From IMG/VR virus record IMGVR_UViG_2671180804_000001: a stretch of DNA of 16,868 nucleotides. One strand, given 5' to 3'. Position 1 is the first letter of the stretch, and the number at the start of each line of letters is the position of its first letter. Both the position numbers and the translations under genes were made by a program. Source of the stretch: a virus (taxonomy: Duplodnaviria; Heunggongvirae; Uroviricota; Caudoviricetes). The notes under the pieces were generated by a model. It was not told the origin of the DNA. It ran no database searches and was given only the letters and a program-made list of their open reading frames with translations. Below, piece by piece: positions 2,296 through 16,634 of this stretch.

Positions 2296-2387
2296 AATGA
2301 TATTGCGGGTCTAGGTCGGCCAACCGAAAAGCGGGATACCCTACCCGTCTGGCCCGCAAATTATTTAGGGGCGTTGAGGGTGACGGT

Positions 2388-3212
2388 ATGGGTATGCCAT
2401 TGCGTGAGTATTATCCTATAACTCGAGCGGCTAGTTTATTAGGATATGAAACGAATGATCTTTTACACTGGGCCTCTACTGGTTCAATACGATTATTCAT
2501 TAATTTCGACGTAACCAACATAACAAAAGGGTATGTTGTATTCACAGATGAAGGCCTTTCTTTGAGAACGAAATTAATTGAAAAAGGTATCGTTTCTGAT
2601 TGGTTTTCGAGGGTTTATAATTTAAAAAATATTAGGGATATTAACAGCCCAGACCCTAAAATAAATTATGATGGGAGTGAGCTTATTTTAAAGGATGCAT
2701 TGGAATGTGGGTTTAGTGGCTTTTGGCAACTACCTAAAACATTCTTTGGATTGACCGAGCTTTATGATATTCATCCTCAATTCTTCCAGGTGTGGATGTC
2801 AGTATCGAACAAGATGATAGTTAACTTTAATAGTGAGGAACCTATTGATTTTGATTTGGCTGATATTTATCTCATGAAAAATGACTTTATCATGTTAAGA
2901 GATAGTAGAGATGGTGAGTCATTACCTAGTTTTTATAATGGCGGTGTATTACCTCCTGACACTGAAGTTTCAACAGTCGCACTAAATCCAGGGAGGGCAG
3001 AACATCATGCAAAAAAGAGAGAGGAAGTATTAAAAGCTGCCATTTATATTAAACATTGCCACCCCGAACTGTGTAACAATTATACTAACTGGGCTAATGC
3101 TATTAGTGACCATGCTCATAAGTTTTGGCGCAGTGGTGAAGCACCCTTATCAATTAAAACTATTGCAGCATTAATTGGTGAGGCTCATAGGCTACCAACA
3201 CCATCATCGTAA
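2388..3212 (+). CDS. Hypothetical protein, AT-rich cargo gene
   Basis: 274-aa ORF with a GAGGGTGA RBS upstream. A sampled 60-nt stretch (2581..2640) is about 27% G+C against about 62% sampled in the primase gene. No Walker A or other motif recognised by eye. Confidence 0.6.
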   Translation: MGMPLREYYPITRAASLLGYETNDLLHWASTGSIRLFINFDVTNITKGYVVFTDEGLSLRTKLIEKGIVSDWFSRVYNLKNIRDINSPDPKINYDGSELILKDALECGFSGFWQLPKTFFGLTELYDIHPQFFQVWMSVSNKMIVNFNSEEPIDFDLADIYLMKNDFIMLRDSRDGESLPSFYNGGVLPPDTEVSTVALNPGRAEHHAKKREEVLKAAIYIKHCHPELCNNYTNWANAISDHAHKFWRSGEAPLSIKTIAALIGEAHRLPTPSS

Positions 3213-3352
3213 GCCGGTTCCCGAGTTAGCCTAATGCCTCCCCGAGTTATGCTAACTCGGGTTTCAATACAAAGAAATATGCATCAAGATTCTCCAAACA
3301 ACGCCAGAACAGATAGGAAGTGTTCCTTCTGAGAGCGTTAACTGGAGGGTTT

Positions 3353-3637
3353 ATGCTAAATACTGTTTTCATCCCACCAACGGCTGAGCAGCGCCGCCAA
3401 ATTCTTAGGGACTACGGATTTGAATATGACCGACGTATTCGTGAGGCCGAATGCTTGGAAATAACTAGTCTTTCCCGCTCTACCCGCTGGAATATGGAAA
3501 ATGATAGTAAGTTTCCCACCCGCTGCCACTTTGGGCGTAACAGCTGCGCATGGCTCCTATCTGACATTCTTTGGTGGGTTCGTAATCCGCCTTCAGTGTT
3601 AAACGTAAATAATCCGCACAGCCGCAAGTCTGCATAA
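3353..3637 (+). CDS. alpA: AlpA-family phage regulatory protein (HTH, Xis-like)
   Basis: The segment ECLEITSLSRSTRWNMENDSKFPTRCHFGRNSCAWLLSDILWWV fits the AlpA pattern (HTH with SRST..., then GRxxxW and a W-containing helix). The ORF track starts at GTG 3320; I prefer ATG 3353 because GGAGGG lies 5 nt upstream. Confidence 0.7.
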   Translation: MLNTVFIPPTAEQRRQILRDYGFEYDRRIREAECLEITSLSRSTRWNMENDSKFPTRCHFGRNSCAWLLSDILWWVRNPPSVLNVNNPHSRKSA

Positions 3638-3753
3638 ACAGTTTAGATAAGATCATTACTGAGCATTTGTTGCGTGCTGTTGCGTTAGTTATACAGCAGT
3701 ATTGCTAACGCTGTCGCGGCGGCTCTCAATTTGAATATATTGGAGCACTGAAA

Positions 3754-4566
3754 ATGTTATCGAAAAAATTTACTGCCTTAACTGGTAGCGGCCAAACTCA
3801 ATCTGAAACCAGCCCGAAGGATATTTCTGGTAATAATTTTGCTGCGCGAATTCCTGTAACCCTAAGCAATATCGGCGGGAAAGAAACTCAGGCTGTAAGC
3901 GGCCGTAAGCTGCATACGTTTCTGGCTGTAGGGCGTGACTTTACCAACTGGATCAAAGGGCGCATTAAGCAGTACGGGTTCGTCGAAGGGGTGGATTATA
4001 TGATTGTCGAATATTTGACCTCGCCAAAACGGGCGAGCTCAAAATCTCGCCAGCGTATTGAGCATGACTACATTGTCAGCCTGAATATGGCTAAAGAGCT
4101 TTCGATGGTTGAACGTAACGCGCAAGGCAAGATGGCCCGCCAGTATTTCATCGACTGTGAAGAGCGTCTGCGCCGCGTAGCGCCAGAGGAATACGAGGCG
4201 GCGTTGCTGGGCTGGCGTAAAAATCGTGTAGCTGCCTGTGAAGATCATAAAAGCATGGCCGATGCAATGAAGGGCTATATTGAGCGTACCGGCGACAGGC
4301 AACACGGATTTGCCTACAGCAATGAATGCTCGTTCCTGAATAGCCTTGTGCTGGGTGTGCATCCTCGAACGTGGGCGAAAAAGAAAGAAATTCCGGTAAA
4401 GCAGGTTCGTGACCATATGAATGCAGATCAACTGGCACAGCTGGCTTATTTGGAAAGCCGTGATTGTGCTCTGCTGGATCTTGATACCCGTACGGCAACC
4501 CGCAAGACAAAACTCACCGAACTGGCACAACGCTGGCTGGTTAGACGTGTTGGAGGTGCCGGATGA
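3754..4566 (+). CDS. Phage antirepressor-like protein (AntA/AntB N-terminal domain)
   Basis: 270 aa. N-terminal segment QAVSGRKLHTFLAVGRDFTNWIKGRIKQYGFVEGVDYMI resembles the AntA antirepressor domain. GGAG RBS 8 nt upstream of the ATG. Confidence 0.65.
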   Translation: MLSKKFTALTGSGQTQSETSPKDISGNNFAARIPVTLSNIGGKETQAVSGRKLHTFLAVGRDFTNWIKGRIKQYGFVEGVDYMIVEYLTSPKRASSKSRQRIEHDYIVSLNMAKELSMVERNAQGKMARQYFIDCEERLRRVAPEEYEAALLGWRKNRVAACEDHKSMADAMKGYIERTGDRQHGFAYSNECSFLNSLVLGVHPRTWAKKKEIPVKQVRDHMNADQLAQLAYLESRDCALLDLDTRTATRKTKLTELAQRWLVRRVGGAG

Positions 4567-4975
4567 TTGCGTATGAAGAAAAGGCGACCTTGCCGGGTCG
4601 CCAGTGCGGAATAAATCAAAAGCAAAATTATATTACCAGGCTGTCTGCTGGTGGTCAAAGGTTGAGCGATACGGGAATGATTGAGTTTTCTCCTGGTATC
4701 TCAGGAACTGCGGCAATGGCGCAGTTAGGGGGTACTGCATTGCAGCATACCCAATCACCTGAGTTTTCAGTAGCGACCATCTCACAGATAGTCGGTTGCA
4801 TTCTCAACACCCGCCAATACTTCCCCCAATGGGGGGAGTGTGAGCCGGTGGCACATACCCTGTTTTTGCGCACCTCATTAGGATGTGTACAAATCCTTCT
4901 TTTGTGCCCCCCCGTTCTGGGGCGCTCAAATATTGAGTGTCGAGGCCAGCGCAATTTTGCGCCCGCTGATTTTAT

Positions 4976-5161
4976 TCAGGATTTTGGCTCTTCTTTTGCC
5001 TTTTGGCGCTGGCGGCGTTTGATTTCGCCTTTCGCAGCAGTGACAAGAAACCCTGCGGTACTTTCACCTTCATGTTTAAAAAGCTCGATATCTTCCATCA
5101 CATCATGGGGGATTCGAACTGTGGTCATTTGTGACTTTGCATTCTTCGCACCTGTTGCCAT
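4976..5161 (-). CDS. Small DNA-binding regulator, ribbon-helix-helix-like (putative repressor)
   Basis: 61 aa with strong AAGGAG RBS on the minus strand. TTVRIPHDVMEDIELF followed by helices and a basic tail fits a beta-strand/helix/helix RHH layout. Transcribed divergently from the replication operon. Confidence 0.5.
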   Translation of the reverse strand: MATGAKNAKSQMTTVRIPHDVMEDIELFKHEGESTAGFLVTAAKGEIKRRQRQKAKEEPKS

Positions 5162-5355
5162 TACTGAAACTCCTTATGTTAGGTGTATTTCAGTATACGC
5201 AAAAAAAATAAAAGAAAAAGGCTTGAAGTGTATTTCACTTTGGGCTAGTTTGAATATTAAAGGTGACATACACCTTTCAAGTGCGAAGCCCGGTAGTGCT
5301 AGGAACACTAACCGGGCCTCTAACCACCGCCGTTAACGTAGATAACGAGGCAGCT
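5162..5355. promoter_or_regulatory. Divergent control region between the RHH regulator and the replication operon
   Basis: 194-bp gap between divergent starts. Contains a 10-bp direct repeat GTGTATTTCA (5183..5192 and 5228..5237), a GTATAC palindrome at 5193..5198, an inverted repeat AGGTG-ACATA-CACCT (5261..5275) and a long imperfect hairpin at 5288..5317. Confidence 0.45.
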
Positions 5356-5631
5356 ATGAAAGATCATATCACACACCCGCAAGGGCGGGATTCTGACAAC
5401 CAAAAATTAATGCCAGCCTACACATGGCTTTTCCTCGGCACACCAAAAGGCCAGACCTGCACACCTGTAGTTATCCGTACTGCCGCCGACACGGAAGAAG
5501 AAGCCCGAGCATGGTATCCCCGTTGGGATCTGACGTTCGCCGCGAAGATTCGCTCTGAATGTTCTTTGTACCAGTACCGCAACGGTGCTTTCGAATTAAC
5601 CGTGTCAGGGCTGGAGGTGCGCCATGCCTAA
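5356..5631 (+). CDS. Hypothetical protein (first gene of replication operon)
   Basis: ATG at 5356 with GAGG RBS 5 nt upstream. The ORF track extends to 5263, but that upstream part overlaps the leader hairpin. 91 aa. Confidence 0.5.
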
Positions 5632-5815
5632 TCTGAGCATGCTGGATATGGGCGACAAATTTCGCTCTCTGGAAGTCCTGTTAGCTGCGGCGCTGGAAAT
5701 GAACTGGAGTAAAGACGATGAGAGCGATATCGCCGTTGAGTTGATTGATATTGCTCTCCAGCGTTGCCGTGAATTGCGTCAGCAGGTGGATTTACCGGGG
5801 GTGAAGCATGTGTGA
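5624..5815 (+). CDS. Hypothetical protein
   Basis: 63 aa. GGAGG RBS; start overlaps the upstream stop by 8 nt, indicating translational coupling. Confidence 0.5.
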
Positions 5816-6116
5816 TATCTACCATCAACTTGTAAAGCACGCGCCAGATTTCAGAAGACATTCTGATGATGATTTATCTGAGGTTTCTGACGTCTGTGGC
5901 GAGGCAGCACGCGCTGTCAGCAATACCCTTACCCTGATTGGAAACCTGATGCTTGAGGCATCGCTGAGTGAGGAATACAGCAACGAAAACGCACGCCGCG
6001 ACATGATGTTGCTGGGTGACACGCTGCGAAATCTTCCCCGGCTAGCTGAGGCTCTGGAGCAGAACAGTTGCACAGCCAATTTTGTGCTCAGGCAGCGCCA
6101 GGGGGTGTTCAAATGA
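5808..6116 (+). CDS. Hypothetical protein
   Basis: 102 aa. Start overlaps the upstream gene by 8 nt within the same operon. Confidence 0.5.
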   Translation: MCDIYHQLVKHAPDFRRHSDDDLSEVSDVCGEAARAVSNTLTLIGNLMLEASLSEEYSNENARRDMMLLGDTLRNLPRLAEALEQNSCTANFVLRQRQGVFK

Positions 6117-6481
6117 TCAGTAACGTTAAATTCAACGAACTGGAAAAGCGCCTCGATTTGCTGGTGGAGAAGGTACTGAACCTCGAGCTGCAGATCAAAT
6201 CACTCACAGATAGCCAGGGTGGCGAAATCCCCACGGGTATGAGTCCTGTTACTACGCTGGCGGCGGAGTTTGGCATTTCAACCAAGAAGGCCGAAGAACT
6301 AGCGAAAAACACAGGGGTAATGCTGGTACGGCTAAAATCAGGCGGGTTCGTGGCTCCTGATGAGAAATTCAGGGAGGCGGCGCGGCTGGTGCTGCGTAGT
6401 GCAAAACGTAAATACGGATCGGCATACTGGTATCACCCGCTGATTGGTAAGTTCCAGATGAGTGGAGGTATCCCGCAATGA
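6113..6481 (+). CDS. Hypothetical protein with coiled-coil-like N-terminus
   Basis: ATG at 6113 preceded by GGGGGTG and overlapping the upstream stop (ATGA). The ORF track begins at 6068; the internal ATG is better placed. 122 aa. Confidence 0.5.
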   Translation: MISNVKFNELEKRLDLLVEKVLNLELQIKSLTDSQGGEIPTGMSPVTTLAAEFGISTKKAEELAKNTGVMLVRLKSGGFVAPDEKFREAARLVLRSAKRKYGSAYWYHPLIGKFQMSGGIPQ

Positions 6482-6843
6482 CCGATATTTTTGAAGTGAT
6501 AGGCCCATTGTTCCGCAAACTGACCGAAACATGTATTGCTCACCAGATAGCGGAAACCGGTTCGGCAACCTTGCTGGTGGAAAGCGATAAGTATATGGCC
6601 CGCTATCGCTTCACGCTGGAGCCGCGCGTAACTGAAAACGTATTGATGAAATATATGATTTTTGGCTGTTTTGAAGAATTCGGGCGCGATGAGGGGTTAA
6701 GGCGTTTGCGGGATATTCTGCTGACCTGCTTTACCGACGATGGCGATATTAACGAAATGGGGTTGCAGATAGTGAAAAGCTGCCACCTTGAATACCTGCA
6801 TGAAGATTTGGAAGCGGATCTTTCCAATAAGGTGCTGCACTGA
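6478..6843 (+). CDS. Hypothetical protein
   Basis: 121 aa. GGAGG RBS; ATGA overlap with the upstream gene and TGATG overlap with the downstream primase gene. Confidence 0.5.
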   Translation: MTDIFEVIGPLFRKLTETCIAHQIAETGSATLLVESDKYMARYRFTLEPRVTENVLMKYMIFGCFEEFGRDEGLRRLRDILLTCFTDDGDINEMGLQIVKSCHLEYLHEDLEADLSNKVLH

Positions 6844-8975
6844 TGAAGATGAAAAACGCCCCAAACATTAAGTGTCTGCCAAAGGACAAGTTTACTGAGG
6901 CGATTATTTTTGCGGGGGAAGATGCTTATTCACACGCGCAGCACTGGATCGAGAGCGAGGGGAAAAGGGCGGGGGATGATGTGCCGCCTGTGTATCTGGG
7001 GAAAAAGCAGCTGGAGGAGCTTGAAAGGCTGAATATCATCGATCAGGGGCGTCGTTGCGTACGCGTGATTAGAGCTGGCGAGCTTTCCGAAATGCAGATA
7101 AGCACTATCGCAACCAAACTGGCGCTGGCGGATGTGAAAGAGGCCCGGCTGTTTAATGGCATGTTTGAGCCTCAGCCGAAGGAGAACTGGACGGATGTAC
7201 TTCCACGGCTCAGGGAAGATGCCGAGCGTGGGGAAAGTATTGTGGTAAATCTGCCTGTGAAAAAAAGGGAGCCAAAGCCTGAACCGGGTGATGAACTGAA
7301 ACCCCGCGTAGAGAGCCGTAACGATGGCCTGTACTGGATCACGCCAAAGGTGGATAAGGACAGCGGAGAAATAATCAATAACGAAACGTGGATGTGTTCG
7401 CCGCTTGAGGTGGTGGGGTCCGGTAGTGACGGGGCCGAGCGCTATCTCGTTTTGCGCTGGCGTTCGCCACGTGGCCATGAAGATATTACCAGGGCGATCC
7501 CCTGTGCTGATATCGGTGAGCGTGACGGCTGGCGCTATCTAAAGGCTGGTGGGGTAAACGTAACGACTAAAAGTACATTCCGGGCAATTCTTGCCGACTG
7601 GCTACAGCAATGTGGTGCAGGGCAGGAATGGATTATTAGCCATACCACCGGCTGGCATCACGGCGCATACATCATGCCAGATGGTGAAGTTATCGGTGAT
7701 CCGGAAATGCCTATTCTCTTTAACGGTCGCAGCGCTGCATCTTCCGGTTATGCCGTGGCTGGAACTGCTGAGAGTTGGCGGGATTCAGTGGCATATCTGG
7801 CAGGAGGCAACCCATCGATGATGCTGGGTGTGGCTGCGGCATTGTCTGCGCCGCTGATCGGGCTGGTGGGCGCTGATGGCTTCGGCGTCCATTTGTTCGA
7901 ACAGTCCAGCGCCGGTAAGACTACCACCGCAAATATTGCGAGCAGTATTTGGGGCGAGCCCGACGCTTTGAGGTTGACCTGGTACGGTACCGCGCTTGGT
8001 ATTGCTAACGAGGCAGAGGCGCATAACGACAGCCTGTTACCACTTGATGAGGTAGGGCAGGGCAGCAGTGCTAAAGATGTCGCCACGTCTGCTTACACTT
8101 TGTTTAACGGGGCTGGGAAGTTGCAGGGGGCTAAAGAGGGTGGCAACCGGGAGCTAAAGCGCTGGCGAACTGTTGCGATCAGTACCGGGGAAATGGATAT
8201 TGAAACATTCCTGGCTGCTGGTGGAATTAGGGTGAAAGCTGGGCAGCTGGTGCGCCTGCTGAATATCCCCATGGAGAAATCCACGGCCTTTAACGGGCTG
8301 GCTAACGGAAAGGCCCACGCCGATGCACTGAAAGAGTCATGGATTGATAACCACGGCGCAGCAGGGCGTGAGTGGGTAAAATGGCTGGCAACCCACCAGC
8401 AGGAGGCTAAACAGGCTGTGCGGGATGCGCAGACGCGCTGGCGCAGTCTTATTCCGGCTGATTATGGTGAACAGGTTCATCGTGTGGCTGAGCGCTTCGC
8501 CATTCTTGAGGCTGCGCTGGTAACTGGTTCGCCGATAACTGGCTGGAGTGAACAAGCCAGCCGGGATGCTATTCAGCATAGCTTCAATGCCTGGGTAAAA
8601 GAATTCGGAACAGGTAACAAGGAGCACCAGCAGATCATCGAGCAGTGCGAGGCCTTTCTGAACGCGCATGGTATGAGCCGCTATGCTCCGCTGCCATACT
8701 GCCCGTCAGATATGCCAATTCGTGATATGGCTGGATACCGCGAAAGGGGCAAGCATGATGATTCGCCGATGGTGTTTTATACCTTCCCTTCTGCGTTCGA
8801 AAAAGAGATAGCGCAGGGGTTCAATGCGAAGCAGTTCGCCAGAGTTCTGTCTGAATCTGGAATGTTGACACCCCCAGCAAGCGGCAGGGGATACCAGCGG
8901 AAATCACCGCGTATCGATGGGCGTCAGATTAATGTTTACGTCATTCAGTACCAGCAGGAGGGAACCGAAGAATAA
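6843..8975 (+). CDS. Replication initiator, primase/helicase-like protein (P4 alpha-like role)
   Basis: 710 aa, last gene of the coupled operon and immediately upstream of the iteron array. Contains a P-loop-like motif (LFEQSSAGKTTTAN). Resembles satellite/prophage primase-helicase proteins of the DUF927 type; that assignment is from memory, not a search. Confidence 0.75.
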   Translation: MKMKNAPNIKCLPKDKFTEAIIFAGEDAYSHAQHWIESEGKRAGDDVPPVYLGKKQLEELERLNIIDQGRRCVRVIRAGELSEMQISTIATKLALADVKEARLFNGMFEPQPKENWTDVLPRLREDAERGESIVVNLPVKKREPKPEPGDELKPRVESRNDGLYWITPKVDKDSGEIINNETWMCSPLEVVGSGSDGAERYLVLRWRSPRGHEDITRAIPCADIGERDGWRYLKAGGVNVTTKSTFRAILADWLQQCGAGQEWIISHTTGWHHGAYIMPDGEVIGDPEMPILFNGRSAASSGYAVAGTAESWRDSVAYLAGGNPSMMLGVAAALSAPLIGLVGADGFGVHLFEQSSAGKTTTANIASSIWGEPDALRLTWYGTALGIANEAEAHNDSLLPLDEVGQGSSAKDVATSAYTLFNGAGKLQGAKEGGNRELKRWRTVAISTGEMDIETFLAAGGIRVKAGQLVRLLNIPMEKSTAFNGLANGKAHADALKESWIDNHGAAGREWVKWLATHQQEAKQAVRDAQTRWRSLIPADYGEQVHRVAERFAILEAALVTGSPITGWSEQASRDAIQHSFNAWVKEFGTGNKEHQQIIEQCEAFLNAHGMSRYAPLPYCPSDMPIRDMAGYRERGKHDDSPMVFYTFPSAFEKEIAQGFNAKQFARVLSESGMLTPPASGRGYQRKSPRIDGRQINVYVIQYQQEGTEE

Positions 8976-8995
8976 TTACACGTGAGGTTTATTTT

Positions 8996-9284
8996 GTTGG
9001 TTCAGTTGGTTCAGTAGGTAGTGTGTATCGTTATCGTGGTGTTTATATTGATTATTTTACACAGAAACTGAACCAACACTGAACCAACAAATGACTGTTT
9101 TGAACCAACAAGCGGGGGATTTGAACCAACATACCTACCCTGCCCGAATAAGTGTTTTTACTGAACCAACATAAAAACGGCGTTGTTGGTTCAAAACGGG
9201 GCTTTGTTGGTTCACTAAATAAAAATAAGTCTTTTAAAAACAATGTTCTTTACAAATTGAACCAACTGAACCAACTGAACCAAC
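8996..9284. repeat. Iteron array, putative origin of replication
   Basis: 12 exact copies of the 9-mer TGAACCAAC / GTTGGTTCA. Forward copies start at 9069, 9080, 9101, 9122, 9162, 9258, 9267, 9276; reverse copies at 8996, 9005, 9185, 9206. The array begins about 20 bp after the primase stop. Confidence 0.75.
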
Positions 9285-9321
9285 ATAGTTTTGTTTATAT
9301 ACGCAGAAAATGAGGTGAAAA

Positions 9322-9543
9322 ATGTTGGATGCCGGAATGATTGAGAAGAAATCAGCAGGAAGTGCATCGTTGTGGATGCGTGAGGCTGTGGAGGAAATAG
9401 ATAAACAATTTGGCGTTGGCTATGCCAGCAACAACCCTGAGCTGGTGGCAGGGTTCATGCAGGCAGCAGCCATTGATCAGGCGGGGATGTATATCCGGTC
9501 GCTGGTGGAAACGCTGGATTTATGGCCCGGTTCGCTGGCTTAA
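9322..9543 (+). CDS. Hypothetical small protein
   Basis: 73 aa with GAGGTG RBS, directly downstream of the iterons. Confidence 0.5.
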   Translation: MLDAGMIEKKSAGSASLWMREAVEEIDKQFGVGYASNNPELVAGFMQAAAIDQAGMYIRSLVETLDLWPGSLA

Positions 9544-9588
9544 AGCTGAGAGTAAGCCAAAAAACAACATAATTGATGGAGGTAATTT

Positions 9589-9783
9589 ATGGCCTTTAAC
9601 GATTTTATGGAAGAATCGGAATTGTTTGAGCTACTGGGCAAGAAAAAAACGGCTGTATGGCGGTTACGAAAAGACCATGGTTTTCCGAATCCTGTTCTTA
9701 CCTACCCGTCGCGCTACAGCCGCAAAGCTGTAATGAAATGGCTTGAGGATGGTGGTATTAACCGTACGGTTTGTGGTTATTGA
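9589..9783 (+). CDS. AlpA/Xis-like helix-turn-helix DNA-binding protein (second copy in the element)
   Basis: 64 aa with GGAGG RBS. ELFELLGKKKTAVWRLRKDHGFPNPVLTYPSRYSRKAVMKWLE fits the AlpA/excisionase HTH pattern. Confidence 0.6.
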   Translation: MAFNDFMEESELFELLGKKKTAVWRLRKDHGFPNPVLTYPSRYSRKAVMKWLEDGGINRTVCGY

Positions 9784-9798
9784 ACCTGAATTTATCTG

Positions 9799-9827
9799 GC
9801 TGCACTCTTTTGGGTGCAGTTATTTTC
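9799..9827 (+). terminator. Rho-independent terminator after the AlpA-like gene
   Basis: GCTGCAC - tcttttgg - GTGCAGT stem-loop followed by TATTTTCC. Confidence 0.5.
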
Positions 9828-10048
9828 CTGTCAGGTAGGGATGGATGTTGATCATTACCTGTAATCATTATTCTCCGGCATACCGTTCGCCTCTTCGCGT
9901 AAAGTTGCCTGGTCATTGGAAACCTCGCCTTTCTGACCAGTTAGAAAAATCCTAGTGGTTAACATCTGTTGAATAAAACAGCAAAAAGGAGTTCACACCT
10001 TACGCACTATACAGTGCTACGCCCAAAGCCGCGTCAACGCTGGCTTTC

Positions 10049-10150
10049 GGGGGTATACACCCCTTGTGCATAAATAGTGAAACTTGTATACAAAAATGCA
10101 GAAAATCAGCCTGCAAGCCGCACCAGATAAGAGTTGTCTGTGTATACAGA
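10049..10150. promoter_or_regulatory. Cluster of GTATAC-centred palindromes (putative operators) upstream of the AT-rich operon
   Basis: GGGGGTATACACCCC (10049..10063), the perfect palindrome TTGTATACAA (10085..10094) and TGTATACA (about 10143..10150), all within roughly 100 bp of a 570-bp non-coding region. Confidence 0.35.
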
Positions 10151-10353
10151 TAGGATTTAAATTTGTTTAAACTAACCACCCTTTGATATGGTTTGATTGT
10201 CCAACTGTCTGCTGGCTGTATGTGTACCTAACGGGGAAGAGTGATGTTCCTCGCACTAATGTTTTCATTAAACGGGTATCTTTGATGGAGTTTGGTTAAG
10301 AATTCACAGCAGGGTTGTAGAATGTTTTTATCATTAATGGAGATGTATGGAAT

Positions 10354-10710
10354 ATGCAAAGACTGGTTGAAATTAAAAAACGCCTTGAATTAATCGAAGA
10401 AGCATTAAATGAACAGTATCCAAATTATAAATCAGACCCTGAGATTACAGCACAAATTACAGAATTGAAAGGACATGTACAAGACGCTCGTAAAATAATA
10501 CAAAAAAAGAAATCCCTGGGTGAACTATCAGACTTTGAAATAGCATTTATCGAACCAGCTATTAATGATGTTTACTTAACCTCGATCGATAAAATTCGTC
10601 GTGGAGCCAAACCTAGCCCTAGCGTGAGTGAACATATATACGATACGTCTGTGACTTTGGATCATTGGTTGGGCGAAATTGGTAGGTTTAAATCCAATCA
10701 GAATGGTTAA
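10354..10710 (+). CDS. Hypothetical protein, gene 1 of the AT-rich cargo operon
   Basis: 118 aa, charged and predicted helical. A sampled stretch (10381..10440) is about 33% G+C. No recognisable motif. Confidence 0.55.
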   Translation: MQRLVEIKKRLELIEEALNEQYPNYKSDPEITAQITELKGHVQDARKIIQKKKSLGELSDFEIAFIEPAINDVYLTSIDKIRRGAKPSPSVSEHIYDTSVTLDHWLGEIGRFKSNQNG

Positions 10711-10761
10711 AGCGATTTGTAATGTTTTGATTTTTGTAAGGGTGGAATTCGGAGGGGAGAA

Positions 10762-11664
10762 ATGGTAGCAAGCGTATCAACTAAGGAAAATTTGCCTAAG
10801 CTGGAGACAACCTTTCATGTCAAAGCGAATGGTTCAAGTATAAATATCAAACTTGGTGCTTTAGAGTTTAATCATGTCTTATCTCCATGTGAAAAATATT
10901 TATATGTTCAACTTTGTAACTCAACGTCTGAGGACTCAGGTAAATTCATTAAATTAGATGTAACTACTGGACGTAAAATTTATTCGGTAGGGCCTGAGTG
11001 GGGATGGGCCAGAGGCTATACATTTAATCATGATGGAAATATTTGTGTTGAGACAGATCACTATGGTACCTGGTTAGTTAATGATGATGGAGGTATTTCA
11101 GACCGCGCTGATTACTATATGCGCCGCGTGAAGACTGCTGATTATGGAACGATGAGAGCTTTGCCTAATTTTTTTGAGTTGCATGGGAAAACACCTGAAA
11201 CATGTGCCGAGGCGATGGAGGCTCTTGAACGATTTTTGAGTACATGTTCATCCATGTTCCATGGATTGTCGTATGGTGCTCTGGCATTAAAATCACGTGC
11301 TGAGATTCAAGCCTTTTTGGGTGATAACTCAGGGGCACTACAGAGTTGCGTTGATGCTTTATGCCTTGACCCAAAAGTTACAGTTAAACGAATGCTGAAT
11401 TCACTTAGTAAAAAACTTAATCTTGATAAAGACACTTTAAAACCTTCCGATTGGGTTGAGTCGCTAAAAGTTGATATAGAAGCCAATCGTAATATTGAAA
11501 TCAATAAGATTGAAGAAAATCGCAATCAGATAAAAGATAAGGATGTGATTGTTGTCAGTGACATGAAAATTATGAATAAAGAACCACATGCTAAAAATAA
11601 CATCATGAAATATTTTTTGCTGATAGTGGTCTTAGTGGCAGCATTAGTTGCTCTCTTCAAATGA
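10762..11664 (+). CDS. Hypothetical membrane-anchored protein, gene 2 of the AT-rich cargo operon
   Basis: 300 aa with strong GGAGGGGAG RBS. Single hydrophobic helix at the extreme C-terminus (YFLLIVVLVAALVALF); the rest looks soluble. AT-rich. Confidence 0.6.
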   Translation: MVASVSTKENLPKLETTFHVKANGSSINIKLGALEFNHVLSPCEKYLYVQLCNSTSEDSGKFIKLDVTTGRKIYSVGPEWGWARGYTFNHDGNICVETDHYGTWLVNDDGGISDRADYYMRRVKTADYGTMRALPNFFELHGKTPETCAEAMEALERFLSTCSSMFHGLSYGALALKSRAEIQAFLGDNSGALQSCVDALCLDPKVTVKRMLNSLSKKLNLDKDTLKPSDWVESLKVDIEANRNIEINKIEENRNQIKDKDVIVVSDMKIMNKEPHAKNNIMKYFLLIVVLVAALVALFK

Positions 11665-11702
11665 TATTCATATAGGTGATTAATAATCATAAGGTTTAGT
11701 TT

Positions 11703-12224
11703 ATGCAGGAGCTAACGATACAGTTTGCCAAAGATTTACACAGTGTGTTTCAAAGCAATCGCAATAAATTAGATAAGATAGGAATACCATTTTTTTATAG
11801 TTTTCCGACAAATGCATGCCAGGGCGCATCTGTGTATCTTAGCTTATTTTTTACGTGGCTTGTGCCAGAGGCTACTGTCAGAGTTGTTAAAGGAAGTCAT
11901 AGAACGCTGGATCATCATCACTACTGGGTCGAACTTGATGGGAAGGTGTTTGATTTGACAAATGCTCAGTTCGAATCCTGGTTGGGAGAAAGGTATCCTG
12001 AGCTGGACTCTCCTGTATATGCTCAAAGAAAGCATCCTCTTCGTAATTATTTTTTTTATAAAGAAAGAGAGTCGGCCATCCGTGCTTATGCAACATTCTG
12101 TAGCGAGCATGCGAACGTAAAAGATGTAGACAAGGCGCAATGGTTTGTTATGGGGAAACTCAGAGAAATGGGCTGGGAACTTGAGCAGAACATCGCTGGT
12201 GGCCGATTGATAAAAATAAGATAG
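11703..12224 (+). CDS. Hypothetical protein, gene 3 of the AT-rich cargo operon
   Basis: 173 aa. Contains a conserved-looking Cys (TNACQGAS) and a His cluster (LDHHHYWVELDG) that could form a Cys/His catalytic pair; this is speculative. AT-rich. Confidence 0.55.
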   Translation: MQELTIQFAKDLHSVFQSNRNKLDKIGIPFFYSFPTNACQGASVYLSLFFTWLVPEATVRVVKGSHRTLDHHHYWVELDGKVFDLTNAQFESWLGERYPELDSPVYAQRKHPLRNYFFYKERESAIRAYATFCSEHANVKDVDKAQWFVMGKLREMGWELEQNIAGGRLIKIR

Positions 12225-12249
12225 CCAGTTACCACCACTGATAGCGATT

Positions 12250-12274
12250 GGCGATGTTGTTACATCGCCTTTTT
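12250..12274 (+). terminator. Rho-independent terminator closing the AT-rich operon
   Basis: Perfect 8-bp stem GGCGATGT / ACATCGCC with a 4-nt loop, followed by TTTTT. Confidence 0.6.
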
Positions 12275-12366
12275 CATATCATTATCGTTTCATTTTATGC
12301 AATAAATGTATTGATCGTTTCATAATCAGCAACTACAATCACTGTATAAACATCAGGGGGGGTGGT

Positions 12367-12543
12367 ATGAACAAGAAGCAAAACTCACAAGTAGTGCTAC
12401 TGACGCGTGGTCAGGTTGAAGCTTTGCAACGCATTCAGGAAGAGGAGCGTAAACGTTCTGAATTTGGCATACAGCCATCAATCCATGAAATCGCACGCAA
12501 GCTGGTGGATAAGGCGCTGAGCTATCACGGAGGTGCTTTCTGA
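12367..12543 (+). CDS. Small putative DNA-binding protein (RHH-like), absent from the supplied ORF track
   Basis: 58-aa ORF translated by hand: MNKKQNSQVVLLTRGQVEALQRIQEEERKRSEFGIQPSIHEIARKLVDKALSYHGGAF. GGGGGTGG RBS upstream. Its stop overlaps the next start as TGATG. It falls below the apparent length cut-off of the ORF track. Confidence 0.45.
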   Translation: MNKKQNSQVVLLTRGQVEALQRIQEEERKRSEFGIQPSIHEIARKLVDKALSYHGGAF

Positions 12544-13379
12544 TGGCAAAAGTATCGTTAACAGCACTCCTTGGATTTACTGGTGGCGCAAATAACGTCC
12601 GCAATTCCCAAAAGCCAACACTTCGACAGCGGGAAAAATCCATGAGCAAAAAAGAGCGTAGCTTTGCACATCTTGATGCTGCGGCTACTCAAACGATTGT
12701 GGTGCAGGACCAGCAGCAAACCCAGACTCTGAAACCAGCCGGTTCTTACCGTATTTCCAGTCAGCATAGCCGGGGGCATAACGTTGCAATATCAGAGGAA
12801 GGGAAGAATAGCCCTGTCCTGGCGGTTAAGCTGTTACGTGAAACGAAACTAAGCTCCAGTAAAATCCGTGCTCGCCTTCGGGAAGAGCCTGCGGCTTTAT
12901 CAAAGTTCACGGCTAATTTCATGGAAGAAAATATGCCAGGCTGGGAATTTCTCAACGATGAGGAAAAATCCAGAACTGCCATGCAGCTATCCATTCGCGA
13001 TAATGATCAGAACGGTTATCACGCTTCCCGGAATCGTGCATCTCAAACGCTTAAATCGCTTGAAGAACCACTTACTGATGATGAAAAGCAGGCGATGCTC
13101 GAAAATCTTCGTCTGGACCAAAATGCTTCCGATCCTGATACCCCGGATAATGTTGCGGCCCGAAAACAAGCTGACGATGAATATCAGGAGCAGGTTGCCA
13201 GGGCTATTGTTGCCAGAAACAATCAAATGCGTTCCACCGGTGTGTTCTTGCCAGGCGATACCCGTACAGCTGGTGGTAAGCCCTCCGCACCTCGAAATGA
13301 GTTGCAGATGATTAAGTCTGGTCTTAAATCCGGGGCTATTGTGGTTTCTCAGCCCTCAAATGGAGAAATTCATCCATGA
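12543..13379 (+). CDS. Hypothetical protein, long paralogue of the following gene
   Basis: 278 aa with GGAGGTG RBS 7 nt upstream; coupled to the small ORF upstream. Shares a domain of about 100 aa with the next gene. Confidence 0.5.
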   Translation: MAKVSLTALLGFTGGANNVRNSQKPTLRQREKSMSKKERSFAHLDAAATQTIVVQDQQQTQTLKPAGSYRISSQHSRGHNVAISEEGKNSPVLAVKLLRETKLSSSKIRARLREEPAALSKFTANFMEENMPGWEFLNDEEKSRTAMQLSIRDNDQNGYHASRNRASQTLKSLEEPLTDDEKQAMLENLRLDQNASDPDTPDNVAARKQADDEYQEQVARAIVARNNQMRSTGVFLPGDTRTAGGKPSAPRNELQMIKSGLKSGAIVVSQPSNGEIHP

Positions 13380-13825
13380 CTTTCAGCCACCTGAATAACA
13401 GTCCCATGGCTGTGGCAGGTGGCCTTTGGGCCTCTGTCACCCCGATAACAAATGATGTCACTACGATGTCAGCGCATGCAGAGGCCCACTATATTGCGAG
13501 CAGCGAACCAGCTAAACACAACCCCATACTTGCTCTCCGTCTTATTGAACAGGGCATACCTCACCAGAAAGCAATCAGTGTGCTGGAGAAGTCCCCGCGA
13601 GCGCTAAGCAATTATACCGTTCGGAAAATGGAACGTTTCTGCCCCGGCTGGGAGCTGATGACTGAAGAAATGCAGAATATGGAGGCGTATCTCCATAGTG
13701 TCAGAACCAGCGATGGAAATGGATATCTGGCTTGTATGAACGCGGCCACAGCGGCATTAAATAAATTTATAGAGCCGGTAACGGCTGAAGACTTTATCCT
13801 GGTGGGAGATAGTGCTGATGTCTAA
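13376..13825 (+). CDS. Hypothetical protein, short paralogue of the preceding gene
   Basis: 149 aa; ATGA overlap with the upstream gene. RKMERFCPGWELMTEE...DGNGYLA aligns with NFMEENMPGWEFLNDE...DQNGYHA in the preceding protein. Confidence 0.5.
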   Translation: MTFSHLNNSPMAVAGGLWASVTPITNDVTTMSAHAEAHYIASSEPAKHNPILALRLIEQGIPHQKAISVLEKSPRALSNYTVRKMERFCPGWELMTEEMQNMEAYLHSVRTSDGNGYLACMNAATAALNKFIEPVTAEDFILVGDSADV

Positions 13826-14228
13826 TTCATTTGATTTTGAGCTGGTGGCTGACGATAAGGTCAGTGGTGCAATTGAGCGTATTAATGAATCACTGAATGA
13901 CTTGCAGCCGAAGCTGGATAAAACCAGAACGGGGCTGCAATTCGGTGGGCAGGAAACACTGGATGGTTTGAACGGGTATAACTCTCGCCTTGAGCTGATG
14001 GCCCAAAGCGCCAGAGATAATGTGCAGTATATCGGTAATATGGTCCCACCATTAAAATGGTTGGGGATATCTCCGGAAAGCTGGAGAAAATGGCGAAGAT
14101 TGGCCTTGTCGGTGGTGCTATTGGTGGTGTTGCCTACGCAACTGGAAAACTGGCTGAAAGCTACCGGGAAGCATCGCGTGAGGCCTATAACCTTGACGTA
14201 TCGTCTAAAAATGCCGGAATGCGGGTAG
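13818..14228 (+). CDS. N-terminal fragment of a frameshift-interrupted gene
   Basis: ATG 13818 with GGGAG RBS. Translation looks protein-like up to about 14040. After that the frame gives W/R-rich sequence, while the -1 frame (ORF 14057..14878) opens at 14039 and looks protein-like. Confidence 0.4.
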   Translation: MSNSFDFELVADDKVSGAIERINESLNDLQPKLDKTRTGLQFGGQETLDGLNGYNSRLELMAQSARDNVQYIGNMVPPLKWLGISPESWRKWRRLALSVVLLVVLPTQLENWLKATGKHRVRPITLTYRLKMPECG

Positions 14229-14878
14229 ACGACTTCTCTCGCCTTGCTGGTGCGTTGCAGTTTGTCGGCGCTGATAGTGAGAGCGCCAGTTCGTCTATTG
14301 AGGGATTTGCGAAGGCGCTGAAGGAGGCAAGTAGCGGCAGCAATCAGGGCATGATGGCGGCATTTGCGACAATTGGTGTGCAGATACAGAAAAATAAAGA
14401 CGGGTCTGTTGATACGCTAAAAACGTTACAGGAAATTGCGAGAATTTTCCCTAAATACCGCTCGGAACAACAGAAGTCAATCGCTGACAGTCTTGGTCTG
14501 ACACCTGAAATGCTGGCGTTAATGCGTGAGGGGGCGCGAATGAAAACCCTTCTGGCAAAAGCCGATAAAGTTGGACTGACAGTCGATCCCACGCTCAATC
14601 AGCAACTGACGGACTTTAACTCTGCAATAAACGAGGTCAGTGCCTCATGGGATGGCTTTAAGTCTAAAGTCGAGCGTAAAATTTACTCGCACCTTGATAA
14701 TAACGGCATAACAGATACTGTACGTGGCGCATCTGATATGCTTGAGAACAACTTTGACAATATCTCAATTGGTCGCTTCTCGGGACAAAACAAAGGGGAT
14801 GATTCTGCATTAATGCGCCGAGCATTGCGCGACCCTGAGTTTATCAAACAGCTCGATGGGAATGAAAAAACCAGCTGA
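14057..14878 (+). CDS. Central segment of the interrupted gene
   Basis: 273-aa ORF in the -1 frame relative to 13818. No RBS at its own ATG, so it is more likely a continuation than an independent gene. The helical, Ala/Leu-rich composition loosely resembles the N-terminal part of tape-measure-like proteins; this is my impression only. Confidence 0.5.
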   Translation: MVGDISGKLEKMAKIGLVGGAIGGVAYATGKLAESYREASREAYNLDVSSKNAGMRVDDFSRLAGALQFVGADSESASSSIEGFAKALKEASSGSNQGMMAAFATIGVQIQKNKDGSVDTLKTLQEIARIFPKYRSEQQKSIADSLGLTPEMLALMREGARMKTLLAKADKVGLTVDPTLNQQLTDFNSAINEVSASWDGFKSKVERKIYSHLDNNGITDTVRGASDMLENNFDNISIGRFSGQNKGDDSALMRRALRDPEFIKQLDGNEKTS

Positions 14879-14889
14879 CTGCTGGCGTT

Positions 14890-15642
14890 ATGACTGATCA
14901 GGCGAGAAATAAATACCGCAGACATTATTATAACCAGGACAGGGCACAACAATTACTGGACGATATGTCCGCCATTACCCGCCCTCAGGCTCCAGGTAGA
15001 AATAATGTGCCATATAACCAAGGGGGTCAGTATGATTCTATTTTTAGCGATGCTGGCAAAAAATGGGGCGTCGACCCGCGTCTACTCAAAGCCATTATGA
15101 TGCAAGAATCTGGTGGCAATCCTAATGCTATTAGTGACGCTGATGCTCGTGGGTTAATGCAGATAATCCCCCCGAACTTCAAAGCCACCGGGATAACGGA
15201 CTGGAAAGACCCAAACCAGAATATTAATGCTGGAGCACAAATTTTATCCGAAAACTTACAGAGGTCAGGTGGCGACGTACCTCTGGCGCTTCGATATTAC
15301 CACGGAGGATATGACCGCCGTCGATGGGGGCCAAAAAATCAGGCTTATCCATATGCGGTCCTCGATAATTACCAGCAAATTATTAAAGGTGAAGCCCGCC
15401 AACGTGACGGCTTTCCAGATATCCCCATTAATGGGCAATCTGCAGGTTCAGGAATTTTGCAGCCAATTCAGAATGGGAGCCGTAGTGAAAGTACGCTCAC
15501 TGATAACCTGGCTCGTTCGCTTAAAGAGGCAATGTCCGATCAGACGCTGAAGCTTGAAATCACCATGGTCAATGATAAGGGTGAACGTAAGACCTACAAC
15601 GTTGAGAATAATGGACGGATCACCACGCCAATGAATTATTGA
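14890..15642 (+). CDS. Lytic transglycosylase (SLT) domain protein, C-terminal segment of the interrupted gene
   Basis: 250 aa. Family-1 lytic transglycosylase motifs are present: MMQESGGNPNA (catalytic Glu-Ser), GLMQI, and a downstream YYHGG block. Its frame is open from 14866 and overlaps the stop of the preceding ORF at an A6 homopolymer. Confidence 0.7.
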   Translation: MTDQARNKYRRHYYNQDRAQQLLDDMSAITRPQAPGRNNVPYNQGGQYDSIFSDAGKKWGVDPRLLKAIMMQESGGNPNAISDADARGLMQIIPPNFKATGITDWKDPNQNINAGAQILSENLQRSGGDVPLALRYYHGGYDRRRWGPKNQAYPYAVLDNYQQIIKGEARQRDGFPDIPINGQSAGSGILQPIQNGSRSESTLTDNLARSLKEAMSDQTLKLEITMVNDKGERKTYNVENNGRITTPMNY

Positions 15643-15755
15643 TACCGACAGGCACTCAGGAGGTGACCGTATATAAAAATGGGTCCTTCCTGAGACTTTT
15701 GTAAGGCACGGGCATTGCGCGCCGCAGTGTTTTCCTAGCTACAGGTTTTGAATTT

Positions 15756-15961
15756 GATTGACACTTTACACTAAGGTTTTTCCGGTTGCTGGGTTGTTAA
15801 CTCCCTTGAGCGGCAAGGGATTACCGGGAATAACCGCCGATCCTGATTGACAGTCAGATTGACACTTTCTGCCTGAAAAGTGTCAACCGGACAGAAAAAG
15901 TGTCAAGTAGCTGGCGCTTTACAGTTTGATTGACAGTTTCCCGCTGGTGGGTTGACACATT
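15756..15961. promoter_or_regulatory. Cluster of TTGACA(C/G)TTT repeats upstream of the TerS-like gene
   Basis: Copies at 15756..15767, 15845..15854, 15857..15868, 15928..15939 and 15952..15961 (forward) and 15877..15886 and 15897..15906 (reverse). The pair 15857..15868 / 15877..15886 forms an inverted repeat around a short spacer. Confidence 0.45.
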
Positions 15962-15994
15962 GCCTGCCAATGACAATTACCCAGGAGAAAAAAT

Positions 15995-16582
15995 ATGTCA
16001 CTGATGAGTGTGAGTCAGTACGCTAAACACGCAGGGCTAAGTCGTCAGGCCCTTTACAACTGGGAGGCTAAGCAAGGTTTCCCCGCACGAGTGGACGGCA
16101 AGATTGACCAACTGGCCTGTGATGCTTATCTAGCCCGGTATCGTAGTAGCAGTGACCCGCGTACAAAGAATGCAAAGAGCAAGCCCATATCGGCTAGGGA
16201 GGTAAAGTCGATGGGGCGTGAACCGGTAGATATGAGTGTGACCGAGATAAAGCGCATTATGGCTGGCGACGCTAACAAAGCGGCCGGAATGGTCCTAGAA
16301 GAGCATGCTCAACTAGCTGCACAAGCAGTGGGCCTGTTTTTGAGTAAAGGGCCGAATAATCCCCCTGTCACATTTGGTGGTTACCGCTTGTCGATTGTTG
16401 AAACGCCAGATCATGAAGTTGGGCAGATCATTGCTGGTGGTGCGTTCGGCCTGTCTGCTGACGATGTAATTTTTGAATGCCGGGATTACACCCTGGCACT
16501 AATGAGTGATGAGACCGAAGAAACAGCCATGCGGAGGGTTACTCCTTCGCTACTGTACGCCCTGGCCGACTACAACCACTAA
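15995..16582 (+). CDS. HTH-domain protein, terminase small subunit-like (possible packaging protein)
   Basis: 195 aa with GGAG RBS. The N-terminal HTH (VSQYAKHAGLSRQALYNWEAKQGFP) is similar in pattern to the lambda Nu1-type TerS DNA-binding motif, as I recall it. Confidence 0.5.
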   Translation: MSLMSVSQYAKHAGLSRQALYNWEAKQGFPARVDGKIDQLACDAYLARYRSSSDPRTKNAKSKPISAREVKSMGREPVDMSVTEIKRIMAGDANKAAGMVLEEHAQLAAQAVGLFLSKGPNNPPVTFGGYRLSIVETPDHEVGQIIAGGAFGLSADDVIFECRDYTLALMSDETEETAMRRVTPSLLYALADYNH

Positions 16583-16610
16583 AGCAAAGTGTGCCTGCAG
16601 GCTCCTGTTT

Positions 16611-16634
16611 GCCAGCCTCCGGGCTGGTTTTTTT
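16611..16634 (+). terminator. Rho-independent terminator
   Basis: CCAGCC - tccg - GGCTGG stem-loop followed by TTTTTTT, about 30 bp after the TerS-like stop. Confidence 0.65.

Follow-up and report, generated by a model that had tools for sequence, protein, structure and literature searches.

A tail-anchored protein with a propeller- and TPR-like body is a candidate phage-exclusion component of a PICI-like satellite

The DNA analysed here (the window) is a stretch of 16,868 nucleotides (nt) from a virus of the Caudoviricetes, IMG/VR record IMGVR_UViG_2671180804_000001, which starts in yhdJ and then runs into an integrated element, a phage satellite of the phage-inducible chromosomal island (PICI)-like type. 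The variable accessory slot of this satellite holds a gene for a protein of 300 amino acids (aa) that we consider a credible candidate for a new phage-exclusion component. Our preferred reading, toward which we lean without calling it probable, is that the protein is a membrane-tethered, cytoplasm-facing sensor or adaptor, built from propeller-like and tetratricopeptide repeat (TPR)-like parts, that belongs to a phage-exclusion cassette carried by the satellite, and that its hydrophobic C-terminal helix serves mainly as an anchor.

The original prediction, made from the letters of the sequence and its open reading frames (ORFs), had described a tail-anchored membrane protein at this place. The ORF (10762-11664) and its 300-aa translation were confirmed, and a GGAGG Shine-Dalgarno sequence 7 nt 5' of the ATG forms a strong ribosome-binding site. 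Kyte-Doolittle hydropathy peaked only once, at residues 281-299 (2.76 for a span of 19 residues, 3.42 for 15); every 19-residue stretch starting before residue 276 stayed at or below 1.2, and the observed 17-residue maximum was reached by 12 of 5000 shuffles of the protein. The apolar run YFLLIVVLVAALVALF occupies residues 284-299. The single, strongly hydrophobic helix at the extreme C-terminus is thus borne out by hydropathy, as it is by the structure model and the homologues, although it ends one residue (K300) before the stop codon and not two as had been stated. A signal peptide, named earlier as an outcome contrary to the prediction, was looked for by hydropathy and not found, the N-terminus being hydrophilic. 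The protein has the features of the tail-anchored class: its one helix falls in the last 30 or so residues, the predicted extracytoplasmic end is very short, and hydropathy shows no second hydrophobic segment.

AlphaFold2, run on an alignment of 15 homologues, returned a model with a mean predicted local distance difference test score (pLDDT) of 81 and a predicted template-modelling score (pTM) of 0.72. The model places nine β strands at residues 16-106, helices at 115-256 and a last helix at 277-298, with disorder at 257-276 (pLDDT <50 for 257-280), and so agrees with the β-rich N-terminal part and helical middle that had been proposed. The best Foldseek matches of the β domain in BFVD were PQQ/WD40 proteins (E 5e-4 to 1e-2), and the domain aligns to the last blades of a longer β region in the class A relatives described below. 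It does not form the closed ring of four to eight four-stranded blades of a complete propeller: nine strands make about two blades, and the Foldseek propeller matches were partial (TMq 0.21-0.28). Searches of Pfam, PADLOC, PHROGs and NCBIfam gave zero matches for the 300-aa protein, and sequence searches of the PDB with profiles of the 300-aa family and of its 173-aa partner (see below) gave nothing significant.

In RefSeq and UniRef the identical sequence goes under the name 'Smr/MutS family protein' (e.g. WP_123650775). If this label were correct, the protein would be a membrane-tethered nuclease of the Smr/MutS family, its Smr-like motifs being 'ELHG' (139-142) and 'FHG' (166-168). Besides the public name itself, it could be said for this identity that L140, H141, G142, H167 and G168 are invariant among close homologues, and that by eye the spacing of the two motifs resembles what we take to be the Smr pattern, DLHG...HG.G. 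Against it, none of the 15 homologues matched the Smr domain (PF01713) even with the threshold relaxed to E≤10, and the model shows the region with confidence as helical, not α/β. We therefore reject the Smr/MutS identity, whose chance of being right we judge to be very slight, and regard the name as probably an annotation error that is being propagated in public databases.

A profile search of 1.84 billion representatives (threshold E≤1e-3) found 176 cluster representatives sharing query positions of about 12-220. The family is uncatalogued, with no Pfam, PADLOC, PHROG or NCBIfam model. Close homologues, at 50-97% identity, come from Kluyvera, Enterobacter, Pantoea, Serratia and Yersinia, and a hydrophobic C-terminal helix is present in all of those that are full-length, as well as in the distant relatives P0016, P0017, P0019, P0020 (which has 2-3 C-terminal helices), P0021 and P0025. 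The tail helices are unconserved in sequence and share hydrophobicity alone, with no conserved polar or small-xxx-small motif; they are preceded by residues rich in lysine and arginine and followed in most homologues by 0-3 residues, with a few exceptions such as P0011, which has about 10. This comparison is the best evidence that the tail is functional, and suggests that it is.

Family members fall into two architectures. Class B, which the 300-aa protein resembles, comprises a short β region, a helical domain, an extra helix, a linker and a C-terminal membrane segment. Class A, to which most members belong, has about 330 residues, about 110 of them additional N-terminal residues of further blade-like repeats, and ends directly after the conserved 'NPKIGVKRK..L.KKL' helix. 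Among 164 family sequences, transmembrane segments were absent from 124 (~76%), N-terminal in 18 (~11%) and present as a C-terminal helix in 20-21. Two of the N-terminally anchored relatives, P0087 and P0162, carry an added C-terminal nuclease (VRR-NUC, DEDDh); when ten relatives were searched with PADLOC, nine had no match and P0162 matched through its DEDDh domain only. Among prophage relatives, a 367-aa protein (L101 6001-7104) has two or three helices replacing the single tail helix, and a 466-aa protein (L110 4929-6329) has a TM2-domain-like segment ('GGHKFYLGRP') and further helices that match phrog_10292 and phrog_10680.

In the N-terminally anchored relatives the basic residues come after the transmembrane segment or segments. 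Because of this charge distribution, and because the fused VRR-NUC and DEDDh nucleases must be cytoplasmic, the body is expected to be cytoplasmic in every architecture. From the same charge distribution and nuclease fusions, the 300-aa protein would be inserted and oriented as a cytoplasmic body held to the inner membrane by one terminal helix. None of the residues conserved family-wide looks catalytic, and the body therefore resembles a binding module.

The gene that follows encodes a 173-aa protein in which Cys39 (in 'N.CQGAS'), His73 (in 'HHYWVE') and Asp84 (after a short strand, in 'D(L/I)T') are all invariant. As in transglutaminase/papain-like enzymes, the cysteine lies at the N-terminus of a helix and the histidine and aspartate on adjacent strands, an arrangement conserved in homologues. 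The protein is predicted to be a cytoplasmic transglutaminase-fold Cys-His-Asp hydrolase, which could be a protease, a deamidase or an amidase; searches of Pfam, PADLOC, PHROGs and NCBIfam gave only a sub-threshold match to YunG. The 300-aa and 173-aa genes occur as a pair in five contexts, spaced by 38-46 nt, and have diverged similarly across them (67-69% and 62-65% identity). The constant spacing and similar divergence indicate that the two genes have long travelled together. The 300-aa gene is found without the 173-aa gene in the Yersinia satellite and one Serratia satellite, and the 173-aa family is found alone in Serratia liquefaciens satellites (L015-L017), where it takes the same slot, and in prophages of Xenorhabdus and others (prophage contigs L112-L117; also Colwellia L099). 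Lone 173-aa genes stand in classic moron positions, beside integrase and repressor genes, lysis genes, and AAA_21+RloB or AAA+HNH pairs, and this family may be an independent defence or counter-defence gene.

Close homologues of the 300-aa protein always lie in accessory regions of mobile DNA. They occupy the same post-primase slot in satellites of Kluyvera/Enterobacter, Yersinia and Serratia; a Pantoea allii island carries a homologue with CdiI, RNase-toxin and Zorya genes, a Citrobacter island has one beside AbiTii and Hcp-VgrG, and a Serratia CP4-57-like island has one beside a type VI secretion system (T6SS) cluster. Of 79 genome loci with class A genes, 74 were open to analysis. The gene typically closes an operon there, often with a 4-nt overlap with the stop codon of the gene before it. 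The genes that precede it, whose identities were confirmed by PADLOC and Pfam, are AbiEi and AbiEii at 25 loci, HipA at 4, Zorya ZorB-ZorC-ZorD at 3 and, at single loci, an MkoC-like helicase, an OLD/GajA/AriA-like ATPase, a PHP+AAA protein and ResIII helicases. The AbiE loci, with a third gene overlapping the AbiEii stop, are mostly from sphingomonads (L043-L097; for example L066 4200-6963), and the same third-gene arrangement recurs after HipA and after ZorD. To our knowledge, no third gene in AbiE operons has been described.

In four prophage contigs, which represent two tail types, a class B gene comes immediately after the tape-measure gene. Three of these contigs have an E217/Pam3-like myovirus layout (chaperone, tape measure, phrog_23726, family gene, Dit-like, baseplate) and one is lambda-like (tape measure, family gene, a 74-residue membrane protein, gpM); in one of the four, the same gap also houses an anti-repressor and further additional genes. 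With the 300-aa protein, P0020 and the 173-aa protein as queries, a tblastn search of 50,697 deposited phage genomes found no match. This absence, together with the extra genes in the gap, suggests a hotspot for morons and not a gene of the structural core. A plasmid collection yielded four distant matches only, named 'tetratricopeptide repeat protein', and a scan of viral contigs with the close-homologue alignment yielded none. The family was not found in the literature by accession number or in the DefensePredictor supplements, and is not described in a preprint on Serratia multi-conflict islands. These contexts together tie the family strongly to loci of phage defence and conflict, namely AbiE, HipA, Zorya, OLD/GajA-like ATPases, prophage morons and satellite hotspots.

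We infer an anti-phage role, in which the target and the division of labour between the 300-aa and 173-aa proteins might be as follows. The C-terminal helix would insert post-translationally and hold the body against the inner face of the cytoplasmic membrane, where the propeller/TPR surface would bind a phage or host protein that appears at the membrane during infection. The tape-measure/ejection apparatus would be the leading candidate ligand, because relatives adjoin tape-measure genes. Binding might block the tape-measure/ejection step directly, or might position or release the 173-aa hydrolase; the helix would be mainly an anchor and not a killing device. An anchor is favoured over a pore because the core domain is found without a helix, with one at either end, or with a nuclease too, because the tail conserves hydrophobicity alone, because a variable disordered tether precedes it, and because SNIPE offers a precedent (PMC13190303).

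Several observations weigh against this sensor-or-adaptor reading. Each of the paired families occurs without the other, so that the partnership is facultative and the output of the 300-aa protein alone is left unexplained. The argument from neighbouring genes rests largely on distant (about 25-30% identical), soluble relatives, and many of the AbiE-linked loci come from related sphingomonads and are thus not independent events. The link to the tape measure is positional only. The two or three helices of L101 and the TM2-like C-terminus of L110 exceed what an anchor needs and would suit a membrane effector, and PADLOC-DB 2.0 (5027 defence-protein models) gave no match for the 300-aa protein or the flanking genes.

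The original prediction had likened the protein to abortive-infection effectors that disrupt the membrane. Its picture of a C-terminal anchor on a cytoplasmic body, in a cargo slot of a mobile element, has held, and the family is tied to anti-phage loci; the membrane-disrupting role found no specific support, and the family data lean away from it. In such a one-protein system the body would sense infection and the C-terminal helices would oligomerise and depolarise or permeabilise the inner membrane, so that the cell dies before phage release. The homologues in the Yersinia and Serratia satellites that lack the 173-aa partner and any other recognisable effector would fit this scheme, as would the varying size of the C-terminal membrane module, from the one helix of the 300-aa protein through P0020 and L101 to the still larger module of L110. 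Swappable transmembrane effectors are known from the cyclic-oligonucleotide-based anti-phage signalling systems (CBASS) and from Pycsar, and the variable membrane modules of the family resemble these; the C-terminal position is held by nucleases in two relatives, which looks like effector swapping. Yet the 124 relatives without a membrane segment and the 18 with one at the other end do not fit, the tail helices conserve no more than hydrophobicity, and a lone apolar helix of 19 residues, with just one residue on the periplasmic side, offers no obvious face that could line a pore. Relatives that bear a nuclease are, moreover, also N-terminally anchored, so that anchoring and effector are separate there. 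We therefore regard killing through the membrane as unlikely, though deserving of serious attention.

Two further explanations are rated lower than the sensor-or-adaptor reading. The T6SS and contact-dependent inhibition genes near some homologues, and the effector-like fold of the 173-aa partner, could mean that the enzyme is a toxin and the 300-aa protein its immunity factor or regulator, whether as an orphan or T6SS-linked effector-immunity pair or as a toxin-antitoxin pair that stabilises the island. We doubt this, for satellites and prophages carry either gene without the other, as would be unusual for an obligate toxin-immunity pair, and the putative immunity gene lies upstream of the toxin gene; Pfam and NCBIfam searches gave no secretion marker or PAAR/Rhs/MIX-type domain, and the same cassette occurs in satellites of hosts irrespective of T6SS. 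It is somewhat more doubtful still that the protein serves the life cycle of the satellite or phage through the tail or tape measure, as an accessory to assembly or ejection or as a device that interferes with the helper. The position beside tape-measure genes in the four prophage contigs would suit this, as would that in satellites, where a tape-measure-like/transglycosylase gene belonging to the same PHROG families (phrog_2276, phrog_3824) follows about 2 kb downstream. But the gene is absent from the closely related satellites L001 and L015 and from the deposited phage genomes, and present in non-phage islands without tail genes; the 300-aa and 173-aa genes both occur alone, and a cytoplasmic, membrane-anchored body is not expected of a virion component. 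A structural role in the tail was rejected on architecture and distribution. A holin or spanin role was likewise rejected, given the 300 residues, the large cytoplasmic body, the C-terminal anchor, and the lack of an adjacent endolysin or holin gene and of any PHROG lysis match.

The sensor-or-adaptor reading has its closest likeness in SNIPE (PD-lambda-1), a membrane-bound nuclease that acts at genome injection and in which, by experiment, an anchor positions a cytoplasmic tape-measure-binding domain (PMC13190303). Both SNIPE and the 300-aa family combine an inner-membrane anchor with a cytoplasm-facing recognition domain, and in both the anchor varies among homologues; P0087 and P0162 repeat the SNIPE order of anchor, binding domain and nuclease. 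Whereas the tape-measure link of SNIPE is experimental, that of the 300-aa family is positional. The 300-aa protein also differs from SNIPE in having neither DUF4041 nor GIY-YIG (by Pfam) and no nuclease, and in being anchored at the C-terminus rather than the N-terminus; no relationship in sequence or fold was found, and the resemblance is one of architecture only.

HK97 gp15, P22 SieA and T4 Imm are superinfection-exclusion (Sie) proteins, and the HK97 gp15 gene is reported to lie in the tail cluster beside the tape-measure gene. They resemble the 300-aa family as inner-membrane proteins encoded by accessory genes of temperate elements, and family relatives too sit beside the tape-measure gene. 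However, the known Sie proteins are small and mostly membrane-embedded, in contrast to a cytoplasmic body of about 260 residues with a minimal tail anchor, and Pfam and PHROGs searches detected no homology to them. Cap15 and Cap14 of CBASS, PycTM of Pycsar and RexB likewise join a soluble domain to one or more membrane helices in a defence context, but these effectors bind the nucleotide signal that a partner cyclase makes or are one part of a two-protein switch, and they mostly contain 2-4 helices; the 300-aa protein is accompanied by neither a cyclase nor a signal-binding domain, and most members of its family are helix-free. In LapD-LapG, a membrane receptor sequesters a transglutaminase-like cysteine protease, but LapG is periplasmic and calcium-dependent and LapD is a cyclic di-GMP receptor with HAMP, GGDEF and EAL domains, whereas the 300-aa and 173-aa proteins are predicted to be cytoplasmic and have no domain in common with LapD. 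ElaB, YqjD and YgaM are C-tail-anchored inner-membrane proteins of E. coli that have no signal peptide, a single C-terminal helix and a cytoplasmic body. The 300-aa protein is predicted to belong to the same topology class, but the soluble domains are unrelated, and ElaB, YqjD and YgaM are chromosomal stationary-phase proteins and not mobile-element cargo.

The cassette, which is exchanged horizontally, consists of three same-strand genes (Table 1) that are predicted to be co-transcribed. They have no terminator among them and are bracketed by a promoter-like site and two terminator-like hairpins; their G+C content is 0.38-0.39, compared with 0.50-0.56 in the replication module. The term 'cargo operon' in the original prediction is thus a fair one. 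The promoter candidate is a consensus match only, of a kind no commoner in the region than in its shuffles. The 118-aa protein encoded by the first gene had no match in Pfam, PADLOC, PHROGs or NCBIfam, and its gene occurs only beside near-identical cassettes (L004-L007) and not with other 300-aa/173-aa pairs. In related satellites the content of the slot differs: L001 has PerC, pRiA4b ORF-3 and IS5, and L015 the 173-aa family alone. A megablast search with the cassette found no match in 5426 complete E. coli genomes.

Table 1. Coordinates in the window of the three-gene cassette, its boundaries and the predicted parts of the 300-aa protein
Feature	Position	Strand	Basis or remark
Terminator-like hairpin, upstream cassette boundary	9797..9822	+	11-pair stem, T run; ends the helix-turn-helix gene 9589-9783
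Sigma-70-like promoter candidate	10296..10323	+	TTAAGA-16-TAGAAT, 9/12 consensus matches; ~30 nt before first cassette gene
First cassette gene, 118 aa, predicted helical	10354..10710	+	No family match
Tail-anchored protein gene, 300 aa	10762..11664	+	Whole ORF including stop codon
Predicted β domain, residues 16-106, nine strands, about two blades of WD40/PQQ-type propeller	10807..11079	+	AlphaFold2, Foldseek, alignment
Predicted TPR-like helical solenoid, residues 115-256, including final long helix 230-256	11104..11529	+	AlphaFold2
Predicted disordered linker, residues 257-276	11530..11589	+	pLDDT <50; length and sequence vary among close homologues (alignment A1)
Predicted C-terminal transmembrane helix (tail anchor), residues 277-299, then K300 and stop	11590..11658	+	Hydropathy, AlphaFold2, homologues
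Partner gene, 173 aa	11703..12224	+	Predicted cytoplasmic transglutaminase/papain-fold enzyme
Terminator-like hairpin closing the three-gene unit	12250..12269	+	8-pair stem, 5 GC pairs, T run

The order of genes in the element is tyrosine integrase, int-alpA RNA, a DUF6387-like gene, an AlpA-type helix-turn-helix (HTH) gene, an AntA/KilAC anti-repressor, small ORFs, a DUF927 primase, the variable stretch, two paralogous genes, a tape-measure-like/transglycosylase gene and a small-terminase-like gene. The element is mosaic. Positions 2053-10149 are 98.5% identical to the E. coli element NZ_CM173843, and positions 9598-16633 match, at 95% identity, a Kluyvera/Enterobacter element whose primase (D5_N/Pox_D5) is different; the overlap, 9598-10149, consists of an HTH gene and non-coding DNA and is probably a recombination joint at which whole right arms are swapped together with their cargo. 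In E. coli genomes the same left arm is joined either to a right arm of capsid-forming (cfPICI) type or to one like that of the window with different genes in the variable stretch.

Other features of the element were noted in passing. The int-alpA RNA (Rfam RF02996) lies at 2304-2371 (+; 60.8 bits, E 1e-10), in the interval that separates the integrase gene from the one after it. The integrase (1159-2295) has 378 aa, compared with 408 aa in related E. coli elements: its alignment to L002 skips 90 nt (L002 10272-10361), an in-frame deletion of 30 residues in the N-terminal arm-binding region, and Arm-DNA-bind_3 is matched in part only. The C-terminal half of the AntA/KilAC-type anti-repressor (3754-4566) matches the PADLOC candidate-system model PDC-S22 (E 7.8e-13). 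The proteins encoded at 12543-13379 (278 aa) and 13376-13825 (149 aa) share a paralogous domain of about 110 residues at 37% identity and are kept at 43-56% identity in Yersinia, Serratia and E. coli satellites, a conservation that marks their genes as satellite backbone genes. The ORFs at 13812-14228, 14057-14878 and 14890-15642 are pieces of one tape-measure-like and lytic-transglycosylase gene, itself unusual on a satellite; the intact 608-aa homologue of L004 aligns to it in three frames (aa 1-83, 77-352 and 351-608), so that the gene in the window has two frameshifts and is either a pseudogene or affected by sequencing errors. The Kluyvera/Enterobacter satellites L004 and L005, which have the same cassette, carry an Abi_C (PF14355) gene at their far end (L004 16954-17706, -; L005 9726-10478, -), beyond the stretch covered by the window.

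A bolder reading, which we offer as speculation and think unlikely to hold in full, extends the sensor-or-adaptor role to the whole family. Its propeller/TPR bodies would be widespread 'injection-site sentinels' that recognise the tape-measure/ejection complex or another early, membrane-proximal cue and are plugged into many outputs, among them blockage of entry by a bare tail anchor, a partner Cys-His-Asp hydrolase, and fused VRR-NUC or DEDDh nucleases. As soluble proteins they would act as a third component through which AbiE, HipA and Zorya are linked to phage sensing, and the cassette in the window would be a new satellite-borne exclusion system.

Membrane-anchored defence and exclusion proteins on mobile elements are of an already known kind, but the family, its propeller-plus-TPR body, the tail-anchored variant and the pairing with a transglutaminase-fold enzyme are in none of the libraries or literature searched. 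If the cassette protects, it would add a new protein family to the few defences that act from the inner membrane, and would provide a handle on how satellites arm their hosts. A recognition module found behind AbiE, HipA, Zorya and OLD-type systems and in nuclease fusions suggests a sensor or adaptor that can be reused, and its ligand could account for the triggering of several 'toxin-antitoxin-like' defences. Natural variants exist with and without the anchor, the partner and the nuclease, and the wider family may prove of more interest than the single gene.

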